From Thermoflexia bacterium (lineage in GTDB: Bacteria > Chloroflexota > Anaerolineae > B4-G1 > DUEL01): 64,000 bases of DNA. A program made the translations under genes and the position numbers. The stretch lies in contig DUEL01000019.1 in assembly GCA_011192125.1 (NCBI GenBank), forward strand, positions 2,374 through 66,373, given 5' to 3'. The notes beneath the pieces are model-generated. The model saw only the letters and a program-made list of their open reading frames with translations. It was not told the origin of the DNA and did not search any database. Positions 37,929 through 44,368 of the stretch are shown piece after piece. Every line of letters starts with the position of its first letter. Within the stretch, counting starts at the first letter, position 1.

Positions 37929-39296
37929 ATGTGCAAGGAGATCTACACCGACATCGAGGCCCACAAGACCGCCTATCTCGTCCGTTTGAAGCGTCTCCTG
38001 ACCCAGCCCAGCATCTCTTCTCAGGGTGTAGGGTTAGGCGAGACCGCCGACCTGCTGACCGGGATGCTGCGGTCCCTCGGCTTCAAGGTCGAGCAGGTCC
38101 CCATCGACGGCCCACCGGTCATCGTGGCCCAGATGGAGGGGAAACGACCCGAGAGGCTGCTTTTCTACAACCATTACGACGTCCAGCCGGTGGACCCGCT
38201 GGAGGAGTGGACCACCCCACCCTTCGAACCGACGGTTCGGGAGGGGAAACTCTACGCTCGGGGCGCGGCGGACAACAAAGGGGCCATCGCCGCCCGCCTG
38301 GGCGCCATCGAATCCTACCTGCGCGTCCACGGCTCCCTGCCGGTGGGATTGACCTGGATCATCGAGGGTGAGGAGGAGATCGGCAGCCCCCACCTTCACC
38401 AGTTTGTCGAATCCCAGCGCGAACTCCTGGAAGGCGCGATCGGATGCGTGTGGGAGGCAGGAGGGAAAAACGCCCGCGACCGGTACGAGATCGCTCTGGG
38501 ATGCAAGGGGATGCTGTACCTGGAACTGCGGGTGAAGGGAGCTGCCCGCGACCTCCATTCGGCGATGGCTGCCACCGTCGTCAACCCCGCCTGGCGGCTA
38601 CTGTGGGCGTTGAACAGCATCAAGGGGCCCGACGGAGCGATCCGCATTCCAGGGTTCTACGACGACGTCCGCCCTCCCACCGACGCCCAACGTCAGGCCC
38701 TCGCCGAATGGGAATATCCTGAGGAAGAGGTGCGCGCTCTTCTTGGAATCGACGCGTTCCTGGATGGACTGACCGGTATGGCGCTGAAAGAACGGCTCAT
38801 CTTCGCCCCAACCTGCAACATCGACGGTTTCCACGCAGGATACGCCGGTCCGGGCTCGAAGACGGTCCTCCCCGCCAGAGCCTACGCTAAGGTGGACTTC
38901 CGCCTAGTGCCCGACCAGCGACCTGAACGCGTGGTGGAGCAACTGAGAGAGCATCTGGACAGAGCAGGCTTCGACGATGTGGAGATCGTCTGGTGGAATG
39001 GAGAGGCACCGGCAGCGGGGGATCCAGACCATCCATTCGTGAAGGTCGCGGTACGTACAGCAGAGGTGGTTTACGGCCACCGCCCAACGGTGCTGCCGAT
39101 GATGGCCGGCACCGGGCCGGTGCATCTCCTGTGCGGGCAGTTTGGGGTACCGATCGTGACCGCCGGTATCGGCTATGCCGATTCCCGGGGCCACGCTCCT
39201 AATGAGAACATCCGACTTGAGGATTTCTACGAAGGGGTCCGCTACATCGCCACGCTGTTGGCCTATCTCGATCGGTCCGATCCTGAACGGCTATGA
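37929..39296 (+). CDS. M20-family dipeptidase/acylase
   Basis: 455 aa. NHYDVQPVDPLEEWTTPPFEPTVREGKLYARGAADNKG is typical M20. Confidence 0.85.
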   Translation: MCKEIYTDIEAHKTAYLVRLKRLLTQPSISSQGVGLGETADLLTGMLRSLGFKVEQVPIDGPPVIVAQMEGKRPERLLFYNHYDVQPVDPLEEWTTPPFEPTVREGKLYARGAADNKGAIAARLGAIESYLRVHGSLPVGLTWIIEGEEEIGSPHLHQFVESQRELLEGAIGCVWEAGGKNARDRYEIALGCKGMLYLELRVKGAARDLHSAMAATVVNPAWRLLWALNSIKGPDGAIRIPGFYDDVRPPTDAQRQALAEWEYPEEEVRALLGIDAFLDGLTGMALKERLIFAPTCNIDGFHAGYAGPGSKTVLPARAYAKVDFRLVPDQRPERVVEQLREHLDRAGFDDVEIVWWNGEAPAAGDPDHPFVKVAVRTAEVVYGHRPTVLPMMAGTGPVHLLCGQFGVPIVTAGIGYADSRGHAPNENIRLEDFYEGVRYIATLLAYLDRSDPERL

Positions 39297-39563
39297 ACGG
39301 AGGGGGTGACGCTCGGGCACATTTCGCTTCCAGGCACGCAGAAGAAGCGATACCTCGCGATAGAGGCCCAAGTCCGTCCCCAGCCAGGTGGTCAGTTCCT
39401 GCCTCGTTGGCCGATTGCCGTTCCAGTCCCCACCTGTGGCACGCTCGGCGACCAGCTGGAGGAAACGGCTCCGCCAGGGCTCGCTCAAGGAAAACAGGTC
39501 ATCCACCAGCCTCTCAATATCTTTCTGCACGCTCAACCACCTGATCACGTCTCCTCCGATCAA
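39291..39563 (-). CDS. Hypothetical Trp-rich 90-aa protein
   Basis: Natural-looking composition (DIERLVDDLFSLSEPWRSRFLQLVAERATGGDWNG...). Only TTG/GTG starts are available, and I recognise no family. Confidence 0.4.
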   Translation of the reverse strand: MIGGDVIRWLSVQKDIERLVDDLFSLSEPWRSRFLQLVAERATGGDWNGNRPTRQELTTWLGTDLGLYREVSLLLRAWKRNVPERHPLRS

Positions 39564-39662
39564 GCCGCACTGGCAGCAGAGCGGGCTTGCCCCCGTCAGA
39601 CAGCGAGGGCAAACCCATCATCTCCCGTGGTGGCGATAGGAGAGCAACTAAAAGGCTGATGC

Positions 39663-39869
39663 TCAGATCCCACAAGCGACCGCCTGGCACAGAGCGCCAG
39701 CCAGCGCCTCCACCGTATCGGCCCGCACCGAGAGCACTGCTCGCCGTTCCGCCTCTGTCAAATCCAGCGAAGCGAGGACCTCACCTCGCTGACCGTTCAA
39801 CAACCGGCCACGAAAAGCGGGGTCCGTCAACGCTGCCCATACTAGCTCATCGATCTTCCGCGTCGGCAT
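39663..39869 (-). CDS. Small NHLP/LigA-like protein (68 aa) ending in CQAVACGI
   Basis: ATG at 39869 behind AAGGAG. IDELVWAALTDPAFRGRLLNGQRGEVLASLDLTEAERRAVLSV resembles NHLP-clan / LigA-like small proteins. Confidence 0.65.
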   Translation of the reverse strand: MPTRKIDELVWAALTDPAFRGRLLNGQRGEVLASLDLTEAERRAVLSVRADTVEALAGALCQAVACGI

Positions 39870-39916
39870 GGGTACTCCTTTCAACGCAAACTCCCCTTAT
39901 ATATGAGCGTTATCCG

Positions 39917-40177
39917 TTAGGTCGCGCTGCTCCCACCGCCTACGGGCGGGTTCGCCAATAGACCCAGATCCCCGATCCCTGTCGCGCTGCTCCCACCGCC
40001 TACGGGCGGGTTCGCCAGCAGGTCCGAGCCCCCGACCCCCGTCGCGCTGCTCCCACCACCTACGGGCGGGTTGGCCAGCAATCCTACCGAGCGCGAATCA
40101 CCGATGCCCAGCACGAAGGCTGCCACCAGCACCGTCACGACGACGATCACTACAAACCGGCCCAGTCCTCTGTCCAT
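39917..40177 (-). CDS. Exported 86-aa peptide with three tandem LLANPPVGGGSSATG repeats
   Basis: Strong SD AAGGAGGGAGGG. N-terminal hydrophobic signal/anchor FVVIVVVTVLVAAFVLG. Three in-frame 20-codon repeats run to the stop codon. Confidence 0.7.
   Translation of the reverse strand: MDRGLGRFVVIVVVTVLVAAFVLGIGDSRSVGLLANPPVGGGSSATGVGGSDLLANPPVGGGSSATGIGDLGLLANPPVGGGSSAT
39921..40077 (-). repeat. 3 x 60-bp tandem repeat (37-bp conserved core + ~23-bp variable linker)
   Basis: Cores at 39921-39957, 39981-40017 and 40041-40077. Copies 1 and 2 are identical over 37 nt; copy 3 differs at 2 positions. Confidence 0.9.
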
Positions 40178-40216
40178 CTTACCCTCCCTCCTTACACTGC
40201 TGATAAGTTTCTCCGC

Positions 40217-40255
40217 TTTATATTATCAGGGAAACCTCTGAACAAACCTCTGAAC
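40217..40255 (-). promoter_or_regulatory. Candidate promoter of the repeat-peptide gene with a perfect tandem 12-mer over the -35
   Basis: Minus strand: GTTCAGAGGTTT x2 (40255-40232), -35 TTGTTC (40245-40240), 17-nt spacer, -10 TATAAA (40222-40217). The inverted repeat CTGATAA-N16-TTATCAG (40229-40200) spans the -10. Confidence 0.5.
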
Positions 40256-40280
40256 ATAAAAGGCCGCCGTTTGGCGGCCT
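40256..40280 (-). terminator. Rho-independent terminator after the STAND/SARP regulator gene
   Basis: Minus strand: AGGCCGCC-AAAC-GGCGGCCT followed by TTTTAT. Confidence 0.7.
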
Positions 40281-40318
40281 CCTAAATAGAGATGGTAGTT
40301 TACATCTTGGAGAAGGGG

Positions 40319-43300
40319 TTAACCCGCCGCCTTTCCAGCGATTTCCCAAAACAATGATTCTGTCTCCTCCGAGGGTTCGACACCCAGTTCACTAAGGAGG
40401 ATTTCCCGACATTGATGGTACTGCTTGATCGCCTCGGAACGTCGGCCTGCCTCCTTGTAGCAGAGCATGATCTGCCGGTGCACGTCTTCCCGCAACCTGT
40501 CCACCTCAAGCGCGCGTCGGAACCATTCGATGGCCTCCTCCCACTCTCGCCGTGCTTCATGGCAGCGCCCCACCCCGATCAGCGCCTCTACGTACATCTG
40601 CCGGAGGACCTCTCGCTTCGGGACACACCACAGCCGGCTCACCTCAGGCAGGAAATCCCCTTGGTAGAGCGTCACCGCCCGCCGCCACAGATCCTCCGCC
40701 CGCCAATCGTGATACGGCAACAGCCGTGCCTGTTCGACCAACGCCTCGAACTCCTCCACGTCGAACCAATAATCCACATCGCCCAACCGATACCGCCCCT
40801 CCTCTACTACGATGACCCCCTCCCCCACCGCTCGACGGATCCGATAGAGGGTCGAATGAAAATTGTCGATCATCTTTTTCGGGGGCAGGTCGGGCCAGAA
40901 GACCAGGCCGATCGCATCCCTCTCAACAGGGCCGTTTAACACGATGTAGAAAAACAACTCTTTTGCCATCGCTGCTCGCCAGTCGGACGAGGAGACCTCC
41001 TCCCCATCCCGAACGACCCGTCCCCCCCCCAATGCGTAGATCTCCAACCGCCCTCCTACTTCCTCTTTTTCTTCCGAGGGACCTGCGGATCGAATCCAAG
41101 CCACGGCGAAAGACCTCAGACGGTTGATCTTCTCGAGAGTTTCCTGGCAATTCAACCCTTCTGCAACACCCAACTGGAGGAGATCCTCCGCGTGCTGCCC
41201 CTCCACCACGATAGATTGATCAGTGCCGATCTCCGCTGCCAAAGCCAGGGCTTTCTCCAACGCCCCCAACGCCTCCTCCTGCCTCCCGGCCCTCAGGAAG
41301 GCCTTTGCCAGCAAGAAGCGAGCCCGGGCCGCCTCTCGCCTCGCTCCTCGTCGCTCCAAGAACCGAATCGCCTTCGCAAGAAGATCGATGCCTGCCTCGA
41401 CCTGCCCATCTTCCACCAGCAGGATCCCCTCTGCCAGAGGCAACAACCCGTGCTTCTCCAGATCCAGGCCCTCCCCCTCCACCATCTGCCGGGCTTGTCC
41501 CAGCAGGGCAAACGCCCGCGTCCGCTGTCCTCGCCAGCGGTACATATCTGCCCGTGCCAGGAGAATGTAGAAGGCCAGTCCAGGCTCACTCTTCCAGGCG
41601 ATCTGCCATCCGGCGTGATAGAGCGGCTCCGCGCGGTCATACGCCCCAATGTCTCGATACAGATCTGCCATTCCCACCAGAACGTTGGCCTGAAGCCAGG
41701 ACACGTTCCCTCGCCGGGCGGCAGCCAAACCCTCCTCATATAAAGCCAGCGCTTCGCGATACTCCCCTCGCACATAGTGAAGCCATCCCAGATTGTTCAA
41801 CACCCCAGCCAACTGGGCAGGCGCTCCTAGCCGCCGAGCGATGGCGAGGGCTTCGTTCAAACGGGAGGCAGCTTCTTCCAGCCGCCCCTGCGTGAAAAAG
41901 GCCAAGGTCAAATCCTGCAGGAGGTTGAAAACATCATAGAGACTGCCAGCCTCCCGGAACAAAGCCAGCGCCTGCTCCAGCATCGCGATCCCTTCCGAGA
42001 GCCGCCCCAGCCCGATGTACGCGCGGCCGATGTGCCGCTGTGCGTTGGCCCGCTCGATCGTCTCCCGCTCCCCCGCTGTCTCCAACGCGGTGCGGGCCTC
42101 CTGCATCGCCTCTTGGTAGTGCCCGGTGAAAAGGTTCAACGTCGCCCGCTGATTGTAGACCTTGGCCAGACTCGCCACGTCCCCTCGGGCAAGGAACCCT
42201 GCCTCGGCGTAGGCCAACGCCCGCTGCGCCCCCTCGTAATCGTACTGATCGGTCAACAACCGACTCTGGAACAGCATCAGCCGCGGGGCCCGCTCCTTCA
42301 CATGCTCGGGCAGGCTCTCTGCCCAGCGAAGCAGCGTCTCCGTCCGCCCCCGGGTGAACCACTCCATCGCTACCTGTTCCATCAACGAGGTAGCCTCCGA
42401 ATACGCTTCTGCCGCCAAATAGTGATACACCGCCTCTTCGACATCGTCCTCCCGCTCAAACCACCGGGCAGCCAGCAGATGGAGCTCCGCATACCGTCCC
42501 GGGTCCTGACGGCGCAACCGCTGATGCAGGAAATCTCGAAACAGGCCGTGATACCGGTACACCGCTTTCGGACCCGCCCCAAAGCGGGTGACGAAAAGGT
42601 TCCGCCGCTCCACCTCCGCCAGAAACGGACCCGCGTCCTCGATCTGCAGCGCCCGACGACACAGGCGAACCGACATCTCTCGCAACACGGAGGAGGTGTA
42701 GAGGAAATACTGAACATCGGGGGGTTGCCGGTTCAACACCTCCTGAGCCAAGTACTCATAGGTCTCGGTCGTCACCCTGCCGGATGCCAGCAGCGCCGTG
42801 GGTGTCCGATCCCGCAGGAGGCCGGCTAGGAGCAACACCCCCATGATCCAACCCTCAGCGTTCGCAGCGAGGGCCTCCGCTTCCTCCGCCGAGATCTCGA
42901 TCTTCGAGAGCTCAAGAAGGTCGCGGATCTCCCCGGGGGTGAACCGAAGGTCCGGCCCCGCCAGACCGACCAACTGACGCTGGGCGACCAGCCGGGTCAC
43001 CGGGACCTCCGGCAGCACACGACTGCCGATCATCAGGTGGCAGTTCGCGGGGAGAACCTCCAGTAGGCGGTTGAGGAACCCCCTCAACCCGTAGGCACCA
43101 TCTATCTCCTCAAAGTTGTCCACTATGAGGACGAACTCGACGGCCAGATCCGCGATCTCGTTGGTCAATGCTCCAGCCACCGGCGTAGGATCGCGGAAAA
43201 TAGCGCTGGAGACCCCCTCCAGCGTGGTGAGGGTGCGTTCGCCGAAGCCAGGGAACCGCTCGGCTATGGCTCCCACCAAGTAGTTGATGAACGTGCCCAG

Positions 43301-43528
43301 GTCTCGATCCCGCTCATCAACCGTGTACCAGCAGACCGGTAACGGAGCCCGTCGGGCAAAGTCCACCAGAGCCGAGGTCTTGCCATATCCCGCCGGGGCA
43401 GAGACGATGGTCAACTTGACCCTCGCACCCTGCTCCAGAATGGAGCAAACTCGTGGTCGGTGCAGAAGGGTAGCAGGGGTAGGGATAGCCAGTTTGGATC
43501 GGATCAGGATCGGCCTGGAAGTCTCCAA
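40319..43528 (-). CDS. MalT-like STAND ATPase + TPR array + C-terminal OmpR-type wHTH/BTAD (SARP) regulator
   Basis: 1069 aa. P-loop IVSAPAGYGKTSALVDF, many TPR-like helices, and a C-terminal DVDYWFDVEEFEALVEQAR...LYQGDFLPE...ELGVEPSEET typical of BTAD. Confidence 0.85.
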   Translation of the reverse strand: METSRPILIRSKLAIPTPATLLHRPRVCSILEQGARVKLTIVSAPAGYGKTSALVDFARRAPLPVCWYTVDERDRDLGTFINYLVGAIAERFPGFGERTLTTLEGVSSAIFRDPTPVAGALTNEIADLAVEFVLIVDNFEEIDGAYGLRGFLNRLLEVLPANCHLMIGSRVLPEVPVTRLVAQRQLVGLAGPDLRFTPGEIRDLLELSKIEISAEEAEALAANAEGWIMGVLLLAGLLRDRTPTALLASGRVTTETYEYLAQEVLNRQPPDVQYFLYTSSVLREMSVRLCRRALQIEDAGPFLAEVERRNLFVTRFGAGPKAVYRYHGLFRDFLHQRLRRQDPGRYAELHLLAARWFEREDDVEEAVYHYLAAEAYSEATSLMEQVAMEWFTRGRTETLLRWAESLPEHVKERAPRLMLFQSRLLTDQYDYEGAQRALAYAEAGFLARGDVASLAKVYNQRATLNLFTGHYQEAMQEARTALETAGERETIERANAQRHIGRAYIGLGRLSEGIAMLEQALALFREAGSLYDVFNLLQDLTLAFFTQGRLEEAASRLNEALAIARRLGAPAQLAGVLNNLGWLHYVRGEYREALALYEEGLAAARRGNVSWLQANVLVGMADLYRDIGAYDRAEPLYHAGWQIAWKSEPGLAFYILLARADMYRWRGQRTRAFALLGQARQMVEGEGLDLEKHGLLPLAEGILLVEDGQVEAGIDLLAKAIRFLERRGARREAARARFLLAKAFLRAGRQEEALGALEKALALAAEIGTDQSIVVEGQHAEDLLQLGVAEGLNCQETLEKINRLRSFAVAWIRSAGPSEEKEEVGGRLEIYALGGGRVVRDGEEVSSSDWRAAMAKELFFYIVLNGPVERDAIGLVFWPDLPPKKMIDNFHSTLYRIRRAVGEGVIVVEEGRYRLGDVDYWFDVEEFEALVEQARLLPYHDWRAEDLWRRAVTLYQGDFLPEVSRLWCVPKREVLRQMYVEALIGVGRCHEARREWEEAIEWFRRALEVDRLREDVHRQIMLCYKEAGRRSEAIKQYHQCREILLSELGVEPSEETESLFWEIAGKAAG

Positions 43529-43618: not shown

Positions 43619-44284
43619 TCAATAGGCGACCACGACCGTAACGTTGCCCTCTCCCCACGTCTCCACCTGTCCATCCGGGCCCAACGCCAATGCGACTCCA
43701 TCCGGAATGCCGAGCCCCAGCATCCCTGGCCACCTTCGTAGCACCCTGCGCAACTGGGGTTCCTGCTCTGCGTCGCGGAAGCGGGGGATCACGACGCCCC
43801 CCCGGATCCAACCCCACCCCTGCTCGCCAACCGGATCCGGCCCTTCGTTCACGGCGAGAACCCATTCGCCCAACGGGGCGGCTCCTGCCCCCACCCCCAC
43901 GATCGTCGCCCCCCGTGCGAAGGCCTCCGCCACACCATACAACGCCGGCGTGCCGCGAAGGACTCGGGCTAACGTGATGCCGTCTCCATCCTCCAGAAGG
44001 ATCAGGCCGGCCTCCGCCAACAGCCGCTCATTCTCTTCCTCCTGGGCATCCGCGGGGGTGAAGACCGGCACGACGTAGCCGCGAGGCCCGCCGAGGTCAG
44101 CATACTCGTCGAGGAGCCGCTCCCCCCACGCTGCTGATCCACTGGCGGTAGGCAGAATGGCGATGGGACGGGAGAAGTCGGCGCGGGCCAGGAGGCGATC
44201 GCTCGCCTCAGGCACCTCCTCGCCCCCCATCAGCACCAGCCACCCGGCACCGGTAGCCCAGCGCAACGGGCCTGCCTTCGTCAT
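43619..44284 (-). CDS. Peptidase S51 (cyanophycinase/PepE)-like protein, nucleophile motif degenerate
   Basis: Start set at MTKAGPLRW. Overall S51 pattern (LVLMGGEE...ILPTAS...). The expected G-x-S-A-G-A reads GVGAGA, and GGDQ reads DGDG. Confidence 0.6.
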   Translation of the reverse strand: MTKAGPLRWATGAGWLVLMGGEEVPEASDRLLARADFSRPIAILPTASGSAAWGERLLDEYADLGGPRGYVVPVFTPADAQEEENERLLAEAGLILLEDGDGITLARVLRGTPALYGVAEAFARGATIVGVGAGAAPLGEWVLAVNEGPDPVGEQGWGWIRGGVVIPRFRDAEQEPQLRRVLRRWPGMLGLGIPDGVALALGPDGQVETWGEGNVTVVVAY

Positions 44285-44368
44285 CGCCCTCCTTTCGCAG
44301 GAAGATTCTACCACAGTGTTGCGAGGGGACAAGAGGCCCCCCTGCAAAATCACCCCTTTTTGCGATCC

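Follow-up and report, generated by a model that had tools for sequence, protein, structure and literature searches.

A conserved Chloroflexota regulatory cassette pairing a MalT-like STAND/SARP regulator with a small predicted exported peptide may be a peptide-signalling module

In PlcR-PapR and the other RRNPP systems, a cytoplasmic TPR regulator is followed by the gene of a small Sec-exported propeptide whose active part lies at the C-terminus, and a site for the PlcR regulator in front of the propeptide gene leads to autoinduction. In RRNPP quorum sensing, the mature oligopeptide returns into the cell by Opp import and is bound by the TPR domain of its receptor. To our knowledge, essentially no cell-cell signalling or small-peptide regulation has been characterised in the Chloroflexota, especially in the filamentous Anaerolineae, which dominate digesters, sediments and sludge. 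At the promoter level, the rule described for SARP regulators is that direct repeats stand 11 or 22 bp apart and that the 3' repeat lies 8 bp from the -10 element (PMC10936776). The SARP unit is N-terminal in all the described classes of these proteins, that is, small, medium, large and SARP-LAL (PMC10972967). The window considered here, by which is meant the whole 64-kb stretch of DNA that was analysed, contains a representative of a regulatory cassette conserved in Chloroflexota, in which a large regulator (REG) adjoins three small ORFs (A, B and C; Table 1). This cassette may represent a peptide-signalling module in a phylum with none known.

Table 1. Coordinates of the cassette features within the window.
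Feature	Position	Strand	Description
REG	40319..43528	-	1069 aa; MalT-type STAND NTPase (NOD) + TPR sensor + C-terminal SARP (OmpR-type wHTH + BTAD)
REG intrinsic terminator	40256..40283	-	GC stem 40279-40273/40268-40262, loop AAAC, T-run 40261-40258
SARP-type box (predicted)	40236..40255	-	two GTTCAGAG direct repeats, 40255-40248 + 40243-40236, period 12
-10 element GATAAT	40222..40227	-	8 nt downstream of 3' repeat; read from sequence
ORF A Shine-Dalgarno AAGGAGG	40193-40187	-	read from sequence
ORF A	39917..40177	-	86 aa; exported or membrane-anchored peptide (predicted); signal/anchor residues 1-32
ORF A LLANPPVGGGSSAT modules x3	40081-40040, 40021-39980, 39961-39920	-	TRF, 60-nt period
ORF B	39663..39869	-	68 aa; NHLP/LigA-like helical protein; invariant ...AGALC motif, variable short tail CQAVACGI
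ORF C	39291..39548	-	85 aa, GTG start; four-helix Trp-rich protein

The ORF list of the window recovered all four ORFs on its minus strand, where a sequence-only reading of the same DNA had placed them. Neither REG nor ORF A gave a record when looked up by exact sequence, so the genomic context was taken from homologues. In about 35 orthologous Anaerolineae/Thermoflexia genomes, REG is succeeded by an ORF that has a signal peptide and a Gly-rich C-terminus, together with an NHLP/LigA-like ORF, and REG orthologues stand directly 5' of A-like and B ORFs in all loci with upstream DNA, with one exception. The order REG, Gly-tail peptide and B-like ORF is also kept in paralogous cassettes of about 35% identity across Chloroflexota, and the association holds in differing genomic neighbourhoods. 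A-like ORFs follow REG-type genes at 38 of 59 loci, against a background of 2 in 2747 ORF segments. Species-representative genomes contain about 300 relatives of the regulator, each with a neighbouring gene for a tiny, predicted exported peptide that stands behind a recognisable SARP-type box. The gene-neighbourhood comparison proposed in the sequence-only reading has therefore a positive outcome, since NHLP-like ORFs and small ORFs with a signal peptide repeatedly lie downstream of members of the regulator family. That reading had also envisaged that the small ORFs might lack conservation; they are instead conserved, purifying selection acts on them (dN/dS 0.03-0.35 for the three), and the four proposed genes are real. 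A chance origin of the small ORFs is ruled out by these dN/dS values together with the recurrence across loci. Some paralogous cassettes include a CheY-like receiver, and in others a polytopic DUF5317 membrane protein adjoins the A-like peptide. The flanks of the cassette loci hold no conserved exporter or maturase, and the module consequently looks self-contained; of more than 60 loci, none has a conserved maturase, PCAT exporter or active protease in its vicinity. A description of the cassette was not found in the literature on RRNPP in Chloroflexi, on DUF5317 and on Franean1_4349, and Rfam gave just one sub-threshold snoRNA match, at chance level. An anti-phage STAND (Avs-like) role was also considered and dropped, as PADLOC assigned no defence system and returned weak capP (M78) matches only.

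The domain composition of REG is well defined by profile and structure-based comparisons. Its N-terminal 370 aa, which include the Walker A sequence SAPAGYGKTS, match the NOD of Escherichia coli MalT (PDB 8bob) with an E-value of 8e-32, and Pfam places TPR_12 and TPR_MalT above threshold (62.8 bits for the latter, against a cut-off of 45), while the score of 250 bits for the NCBIfam MalT equivalog stays under its cut-off of 537. The last 259 aa cover the whole AfsR SARP unit, with residues ~817-1058 aligned to AfsR residues 16-257 (8hvr/8k60) at an E-value of 4e-13, align to EmbR as well, and contain a Pfam BTAD domain (84 bits). The P-loop, the MalT-like STAND and TPR architecture and the C-terminal OmpR-type wHTH plus BTAD that had been read from the sequence were all correctly identified, the last of them despite the absence of a Pfam Trans_reg_C match in REG. 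No GerE/LuxR-type HTH was matched in REG either, its C-terminus being the SARP unit, which thus lies behind the NOD and TPR regions. REG is single-copy, its orthologues share 56-87% identity over their full length, and conservation is strong along the entire protein (mean column identity 0.64; 0.56-0.64 in the TPR region). The TPR region also matches the RRNPP receptors NprR and RapJ with E-values of 5e-4 to 1e-3, which are weaker than those for generic TPR proteins such as kinesin light chain. There is one lineage in which A, B and C are intact but three frameshifts interrupt REG.

Between REG and the first small ORF lies a compact regulatory region. The hairpin and T-run that end REG fold with -27 kcal/mol (z = -6.75), and relatives show a hairpin at the same place with compensatory stem changes; both observations bear out the hairpin-plus-T terminator that had been proposed for the gene. 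A simple promoter/terminator scanner missed this terminator and found no promoter. The predicted box, which TRF reports as a 12-nt repeat in two copies, sits between the terminator and the first small ORF, within a conserved promoter footprint, and is the only box-type site in the window. Its arrangement follows the rule for SARP target promoters, with two copies of GTTCAGAG, a period of 12 and 8 nt to the GATAAT element. Direct repeats with a period of 11-12, located 7-9 nt from a TAnnnT motif, were found at 21 further loci besides the window; among these 21, the spacing is 8 nt at 18 loci, 7 nt in L001 and L008, and 9 nt in the regex match of L016. Paralogues have different repeats at the same promoter position, and the repeat sequence varies with the regulator subfamily. 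A genome-wide box scan gave 61 matches, a number close to chance expectation overall and meaningful for the Chloroflexota subset only, in which the matches are located directly upstream of B-family ORFs in 15 of 18 cases. In one MAG, a second box precedes a receiver-domain gene. The conserved direct-repeat box and the -10 element support the separate promoter that had been suggested for the small ORFs. REG would be linked to the small-ORF operon through this predicted SARP-type direct-repeat box, and very probably switches on the adjoining operon.

The first product of this operon, ORF A, has a basic N-terminus and then a hydrophobic segment of 19 residues. It is predicted to be exported, although the cleavage site predicted for it (SVG) is a weak one and no good AXA site is present. 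It has no Pfam or NCBIfam match. The strong Shine-Dalgarno sequence, the N-terminal signal/anchor helix and the three repeat copies were all recovered from the sequence or by TRF, as first described. The repeat copies show 13 pairwise nucleotide differences, all of them synonymous, the repeat part has a dN/dS of 0.17, and one sister lineage carries a Val to Thr change in all three copies; a non-coding DNA repeat was rejected, given that all the differences are synonymous and that the frame is conserved across lineages. Homologues P0002-P0004 share 69-71% identity with ORF A, and single-module homologues with AXA signal-peptidase sites are found at nearly every related locus. What has been triplicated is the module [hydrophobic]-x-x-P-x(2-4)-GGGS-x(1-4), which the wider family keeps in single copy at the C-terminus. 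The idea of a multi-copy propeptide has then to be narrowed: three copies are indeed present here, but triplication is confined to the clade of the window and relatives have one module. Paralogous A-like peptides carry a conserved cytoplasmic [DNE]PR motif at the N-terminus and just 8-14 residues past the helix, and for this reason they resemble a membrane-anchored partner more than a pheromone.

ORF B has homologues in 22 clusters (alignment A1) and a dN/dS of 0.03-0.11. Its assignment as an NHLP/LigA-like protein stands at the level of the clan but not of the individual families, as its scores against NF038399 (29.9 bits, cut-off 40) and PF14407 (23.3 bits, cut-off 48) are both below cut-off. 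The ORF B family profile reaches nitrile hydratase alpha with an E-value of 1e-3, and its AF2 model, which like that of ORF C rests on a shallow alignment, has five helices (pLDDT 79) and weak LigA, NHase and SonA neighbours. The tail is variable past the invariant motif, and in the B'-type paralogues the Cys tail is entirely absent.

The third small gene, ORF C, contains 5 Trp, three of them invariant, and evolves with a dN/dS of 0.09-0.35. The Trp-rich character that had been attributed to it holds, but not the length of 90 aa, since the orthologues place the start at the GTG of 39548 (85 aa) and not at the TTG of 39563. It has an AF2 pLDDT of 86 and no PDB neighbour by sequence or fold, which leaves a guess that it might be an HTH protein unsupported. 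ORF C aligns to the C-termini of M78-like proteins with E-values of 1e-13 to 1e-18 and, as judged from these alignments, is what survives, namely the C-terminal domain, of a B'-pseudoM78-C protein of the relatives, in which a B-like domain, an M78 peptidase-like domain and C are joined. These relatives have a Pfam Peptidase_M78 domain (42-46 bits, cut-off 22), and alignment to a canonical phage M78 protein revealed that HExxH is absent in 15 of 15 relatives' sequences, with RELYV in place of HELGH and the downstream Glu also lost; the M78 peptidase fold of the relatives is predicted to be catalytically dead. Neither IrrE nor ImmA was picked up when the M78-like proteins were searched against PDB sequences. 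The fusion of a B-like domain to a dead peptidase fold suggests a protein-binding role. No M78 domain is encoded in the window, and the lack of an adjacent protease, as first described, is accurate there, but it represents a lineage-specific loss, as the relatives encode the M78 peptidase-like protein.

A mechanism can be proposed for REG, a MalT-like STAND NTPase in which TPRs form the sensor and the SARP unit at the C-terminus is the output domain. Once activated, the SARP units of REG would bind the two GTTCAGAG repeats located 8 nt 5' of the -10 element, replacing a -35 element, and would activate a mini-operon that begins shortly beyond the terminator of REG and has a promoter of its own. 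ORF A would be a Sec-type exported peptide whose functional unit is the C-terminal module, present three times here; ORF B would be a helical, LigA/NHLP-like protein of the cytoplasm with an invariant Cys-bearing tail; and ORF C is a four-helix domain that in relatives forms the C-terminus of a B-like/dead-M78 scaffold. The exported peptide derived from A would act as an extracellular signal, and either this peptide or a complex of B and C would act back on the sensor of REG. The preferred reading, although it is held tentatively, is thus an autoinducing loop of the PlcR-PapR kind made of AfsR and MalT parts, and the feedback of any peptide on REG is speculative. The RRNPP-like logic of receptor and peptide that had been put forward gains from the recurrent pairing of the regulator with signal-peptide ORFs and from the promoter box, but is at odds with a conserved, single-copy REG. 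Given this strong conservation of REG and of its TPR region, a conserved ligand, or B, fits better than a variable peptide. Moreover, an exported peptide would need an importer because REG is cytoplasmic, and no linked peptide importer was found at the cassette. The lineage with a frameshifted REG and intact small ORFs, the long hydrophobic segment and weak cleavage site of the window's ORF A, and the anchored look of the paralogous A-like peptides also count against the loop.

An output-only circuit of the AfsR-AfsS type, in which REG senses an unrelated cue (its nucleotide state, a metabolite bound to the TPR or NOD region, or phosphorylation) and A, B and C are effectors without feedback on REG, suits the data about as well as the feedback reading and is a credible alternative, if still a somewhat doubtful one. 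The exported peptide would then act on the envelope or on neighbours and the small cytoplasmic proteins as modulators. AfsR, structurally the closest solved SARP, directly activates the adjacent afsS through two direct repeats (PMC10936776, PMC10972967), and the conservation of the REG sensor is as expected for a conserved non-peptide ligand. The second box in front of a receiver gene in one MAG and the CheY-like receiver of paralogous cassettes suggest signalling outputs as well. However, A has a signal peptide that the cytoplasmic AfsS does not have, the domain order of REG is reversed relative to AfsR, and a specific molecular partner is suggested both by the tight, phylum-wide coupling of the regulator to one type of peptide and by the fact that the repeat copies are kept identical. 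It is improbable that the cassette is a minimal RiPP-like locus, with B, and possibly A, as precursors, unlinked maturases and exporters, and REG as a cluster-situated SARP activator. B would then consist of an NHLP/LigA-like leader and, behind a double-glycine-like AGA site, a short core that contains Cys; it falls within a clan that includes the RiPP leaders ComX (PMC12353581) and Os1348 (PMC7726476), its tail varies after the invariant motif, and biosynthetic clusters are classically under SARP control (PMC10972967). Nevertheless, more than 60 loci show no conserved maturase, PCAT exporter or active protease nearby, the sole peptidase-like partner has no HExxH, B is under both family cut-offs and B'-type paralogues are devoid of the Cys tail. 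Finally, it is very improbable that A is an uncleaved bitopic mini-membrane protein that tethers or inhibits REG or B/C at the membrane as an anti-activator, its Gly-rich external tail being a sensor or cleavage site: the hydrophobic segment of the window's ORF A without a good AXA site, and the cytoplasmic motif, very short external tails and adjacent DUF5317 protein of the paralogous peptides, speak for it, but the N-region of the orthologous group, with just 5-8 basic residues, is too short for partner binding and canonical AXA sites are seen in the majority of its members.

The preferred reading of an autoinducing loop can be extended to a non-RRNPP class of peptide cell-cell signalling, widespread in Chloroflexota, in which a Gly-tailed Sec-exported peptide is sensed by a STAND/SARP TPR protein that activates its own operon, with LigA/NHLP-like proteins and the dead M78 fold as cytoplasmic modulators; this wider proposal is rather unlikely as it stands. 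In any case, the cassette constitutes a testable entry point, as it offers a defined promoter element, a regulator, synthesisable peptides and a "three-copy" variant that occurs in nature. What is known of SARP and MalT biology is also extended with a new domain order, with a use outside actinobacterial antibiotic clusters, and with new partners, namely LigA/NHLP-like domains and a pseudo-M78 fold that serve as regulatory parts and not as RiPP leaders or proteases.

Like AfsR of the Streptomyces AfsR-AfsS pair, REG joins a STAND-type ATPase, TPRs and a SARP unit in about 1000 aa, with homologous SARP units, and the neighbouring small ORF is the target of AfsR and the predicted target of REG, in both cases by way of two direct repeats that overlap the -35 region; AfsS contains three short repeats too. 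REG, however, has the order NOD-TPR-SARP and AfsR the order SARP-NOD-TPR, the NOD of REG is of the MalT type and not NB-ARC, and the cassette, found in Chloroflexota, gives A a signal peptide and adds NHLP-like and four-helix proteins to the operon. From the described SARP regulators in general REG is set apart by the C-terminal position of its unit. It resembles MalT and the LALs in its N-terminal NOD with an identical Walker A context, its MalT winged-helix domain and its MalT-like TPR sensor, but the C-terminal LuxR-type HTH of those proteins is replaced by the SARP unit. As in RRNPP systems, a TPR regulator is followed by a small, predicted exported ORF with a conserved C-terminus and a box in front of it; REG is nevertheless a 1069-aa STAND NTPase with a SARP unit, whereas RRNPP receptors have no NTPase and join the TPR domain to an HTH, in proteins of 300-450 aa, or to a phosphatase, and the cassette is conserved and single-copy, whereas RRNPP pherotype systems diversify fast. 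B and B' share a three-helix LigA-like core and a nitrile-hydratase-alpha-like motif with NHLP, Os1348, Frankia_peptide and ComX, and the short variable C-terminal tail of B recalls the ComX pheromone precursor; they differ from the NHLP/Os1348 leaders in that B is below cut-offs, no maturase or C39-peptidase ABC exporter is adjacent, and a B-like domain is fused to a dead peptidase. Lastly, the relatives carry a Peptidase_M78 domain in a regulatory operon, as do the ImmA/IrrE (M78) switches, but without HExxH, and the window keeps only the extra C-terminal domain.

At the protein level, REG, the 1069-residue regulator of the cassette, combines three regions. Its first ~370 residues, which contain the Walker A motif SAPAGYGKTS, align with the nucleotide-binding oligomerisation domain of E. 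coli MalT (PDB 8bob, E 8e-32), its middle part matches the Pfam TPR_12 and TPR_MalT repeats, and the alignment of its last 259 residues spans the entire SARP unit (OmpR-type DNA-binding domain plus BTAD) of AfsR (E 4e-13) and also EmbR. The Pfam Trans_reg_C model alone gave no match on REG, and the NCBIfam MalT equivalog scored it under cut-off. The P-loop, the TPR array and the C-terminal wHTH plus BTAD claimed by the sequence-only reading are present, the latter despite the silent Trans_reg_C model, and because of this combination REG is classified from its sequence as a STAND regulator of the MalT/LAL type in which a C-terminal SARP takes the place of the LuxR output. The terminator claimed for REG was confirmed by folding, as the GC hairpin and T-run located 3' of its stop codon reach -27 kcal/mol (z -6.75). 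In one widely sampled population (L001-L004, e.g. L001:6672-9849; assemblies from ENA, JGI and Logan) three frameshifts break the REG orthologue into pieces that are still 83-90% identical, with ORFs A, B and C intact; this split gene looks like a recent pseudogene.

Genes of the cassette in the window (ORF listing)
Feature	Coordinates	Strand	Length
REG	43528-40319	-	1069 aa
ORF A	40177-39917	-	86 aa
ORF B	39869 (or 39884) to 39663	-	68 (or 73) aa
ORF C	39563-39291 as listed; GTG start 39548 by orthologues	-	90 aa as listed; 85 aa by orthologues

The gap between this terminator and ORF A harbors the direct repeat GTTCAGAG-gttt-GTTCAGAG, followed by 8 nt and GATAAT, and a scan found no second such box elsewhere in the 64-kb window. 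An equivalent layout appears in 21 further loci whose flanking intergenic sequence is not conserved: two repeats of T[CAT]AGAG (three in L032 and L033) with GT ahead, a period of 11-12 nt and a TAnnnT hexamer at a distance of 8 nt (7-9). This shared layout agrees with the separate promoter previously proposed for the ORF A operon. It has been described that the repeats of SARP promoters are spaced by 11 or 22 bp, the 3' one lying 8 bp from the -10, and that AfsR contacts the first 8 bp in each 11-bp repeat (PMC10936776); the predicted box follows this published rule. Promoters of REG paralogues likewise display direct repeats, placed 8-9 nt from their -10 and with subfamily-specific sequences (CGTGAGT, GTAAGCA, GTTTACC, GTGTATA and AGTAAGT among others), so the box changes along with the regulator. 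When the whole database was scanned for the GTTYAGAG box, the overall match count was close to the chance number; within Chloroflexota, 15 of the 18 matches lie directly upstream of B-family ORFs. MAG F17_41, which also carries the cassette (L131), has a second box (GTTTAGAG x2 plus TATAAT; L174:808-1600) ahead of a 218-aa receiver-domain protein that may be a further regulon member.

Contigs of the three ORF A homologue clusters maintain the order REG-A-B-C, adjoining prfA/prmC and an S51 peptidase. The distant B members L010 (a 100-kb metagenome contig) and L013 (an Anaerolineae MAG) lie in quite different neighbourhoods, where B again follows a REG-type gene of ~1065 aa with a small signal-peptide ORF before B. 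Scanning genomes with the B alignment retrieved 23 species representatives, all of them Anaerolineae/Anaerolineales/Thermoflexia/Thermoflexales MAGs, and each B locus having upstream DNA, bar one, presents a REG orthologue (phmmer E = 0). The exception is MAG SRR6823440_binner13_Refined_23 (L040 and L027), with REG on one contig and the box plus A-B-C operon on another, behind an unrelated 901-aa gene. Because neither site is at a contig end, REG may act there in trans, unless the binning is wrong. Loss of conservation of the small ORFs, named beforehand as a refutation, was not observed, as dN/dS stays under 1 and gene order is shared among homologues. In the window, the gene immediately upstream of REG, read in the same direction, encodes a Peptidase_S51 (43619-44353, -), and a convergent Peptidase_M20 gene (37929-39296, +) shares 6 nt with ORF C at its stop codon; neither is likely to belong to the cassette, since they are syntenic only in the window's clade.

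A second genome scan, employing the REG alignment, yielded 305 relatives: ~35 orthologues (54-87% identity) and a full-length paralogous family (32-39%) spread over Anaerolineae, Aggregatilineaceae, Caldilineae, Phototrophicaceae and others. Paralogues also precede a small ORF that encodes a hydrophobic helix and a tail rich in Gly (e.g. ...ASGAPAGPGGSNGG at the stop codon); behind it there are often genes for a DUF5317 membrane protein, a B'-like product (E 1e-5 to 1e-18) and a receiver resembling CheY. By a simple heuristic for A-like ORFs, 38 of 59 loci score positive, as do 2 of 2747 background ORF segments. Whether REG homologues recurrently precede small ORFs is thus answered positively across B loci and paralogues. 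The polytopic DUF5317 protein (NGGYMP motif, Pfam 104-121 bits) stands between the peptide and B'-like genes, with the receiver after them, in L110:6859-7419, L084:6621-7205, L130 and L170; a literature search on DUF5317 found nothing. Behind a paralogous regulator in L074:6268-7368, an A-like peptide of 48-52 aa (…ALVPGGSALAGQASGGSGSPLP) is encoded by five genes in tandem, the copy number being raised by gene duplication, not internal repeats.

ORF A is preceded by a strong Shine-Dalgarno; its N-terminus is basic, it has a hydrophobic segment of 19 residues, and the unit LLANPPVGGGSSAT occurs in it three times at a period of 60 nt. Its homologues form three clusters (69-71% identity), and Nei-Gojobori estimates over five lineages give a dN/dS of 0.17 for the repeat part and 0.68 for the signal part, the latter being in line with constraint on hydrophobicity alone. 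All 13 pairwise differences among the window's three copies are synonymous, and each readable copy in the L001/L016 lineage shows the same two-nucleotide Val to Thr change (GTN to ACN), with all three copies readable in L001 (L001:10001-10261 versus window 39917-40177) and the last only in L016, whose inner copies are N-masked. The copies are therefore kept identical at the peptide level, and the parallel change indicates concerted evolution or co-selection. Nearly all B loci carry a 50-66-aa A-like ORF directly ahead of B, with a basic N-terminus, a hydrophobic core that in most cases runs up to an AXA site, and a short mature part, rich in Gly, Pro and Ala, that terminates in P-x(2-4)-GGGS-x(1-4) (e.g. 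DGGGSSST, DGGGSGA, GGGSSVA). The triplicated unit is the conserved C-terminal module of these ORFs. The multi-copy form of the proposed propeptide is limited to the window's clade (three copies in the window, L001 and L009; 2.5 in L008; at least two readable in L016, middle N-masked). Export of ORF A is likely, probably by Sec, and the C-terminal module is its probable functional unit.

ORF B, whose orthologues place the start at the ATG at 39869 (MPTRKIDEL...), has homologues in 22 clusters and a dN/dS of 0.03-0.11 (same method and lineages). It matches the Os1348 NHLP-clan and Frankia_peptide models, both sub-threshold, and its AF2 model, a five-helix domain (pLDDT 79), has LigA, nitrile hydratase alpha and the RiPP precursor SonA as weak structural neighbours. 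These fit the ECOD "LigA-like" group, whose other members include Frankia_peptide, Nif11 and ComX leaders (PMC12353581). The NHLP/LigA likeness noticed earlier holds at clan level, under the NHLP cut-off. A second B copy in L013 (L013:10330-10534) has an in-frame TAG after ...DELV and is a decaying paralogue.

ORF C is a real, conserved gene (dN/dS 0.09-0.35), shorter than first claimed according to its orthologues. Its AF2 model is a confident four-helix domain (pLDDT 86) for which no PDB neighbour was found. Downstream of B, relatives encode B' (a B-like domain that lacks the Cys tail, free or fused) and then a Pfam Peptidase_M78 domain (42-46 bits, cut-off 22), and in many of them a domain homologous to ORF C stands C-terminal to M78. 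C is kept alone in L022-L029 and the window clade, and M78 alone in L031-L038; ORF C is what is left of this larger protein. The absence of an adjacent protease claimed for the window is a lineage-specific loss, since relatives encode the M78 domain and the window clade only C. HExxH is absent from the catalytic position in 15/15 of these M78 sequences, being replaced by an invariant A-R-E-L-Y-V-A-F-C; compared with a canonical phage M78 protease (Pfam 70.9 bits), HELGH lies opposite RELYV and the downstream Glu opposite Arg or His. The zinc site of the domain is lost, and the domain was already a pseudo-enzyme before the window-clade loss. In the 114-nt B-C spacer (39549-39662, -), which takes the place of B' and M78 of relatives, there is a GC-rich inverted repeat (GGGTTTGCCC…GGGGGCAAGCCC), imperfect and without T-run. 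Eight loci of the M78-only subgroup (L031-L038, e.g. L037:9247-10059) encode, 3' of the cassette on the same strand, a 267-300-aa lipoprotein (…VGMDASFPPFEF) that by eye looks like a solute-binding protein.

In the proposed mechanism, REG would be a switch of the STAND type that, through its SARP output, turns on the neighbouring mini-operon at a promoter lacking a -35. This reading is well supported, and activation of the operon by REG is very probable. Feedback of an operon product on REG is somewhat less likely than not. An RRNPP-like loop, in which an A-derived peptide would act on REG as the sequence-only reading suggested, would have the right wiring, comparable to PlcR-PapR, and would account for the identity of the three ORF A copies; however, REG is conserved throughout, TPR region included, single-copy and vertically inherited, no importer is linked to the cassette, and the frameshifted population retains A, B and C. 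An output-only circuit like AfsR-AfsS would fit about equally well. For the paralogous cassettes, A as a membrane-anchored partner is plausible. A RiPP reading for ORF B finds no conserved maturase or exporter in the cassette flanks.

No description of the REG-A-B-C cassette was found in the searchable literature. The cassette couples a large SARP/STAND regulator to a small-peptide target next to it; it is noteworthy for its phylum-wide occurrence, for being self-contained and for lending itself to direct tests. The SARP unit is N-terminal in all SARP classes described by a review (PMC10972967), whereas that of REG is C-terminal. Unlike MalT/LAL proteins, REG has no LuxR output, and it does not qualify as an RRNPP receptor; ORF B falls under the NHLP cut-off and the relatives' M78 domain is devoid of HExxH. 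The cassette would work like AfsR-AfsS and/or PlcR-PapR, yet belongs to neither.
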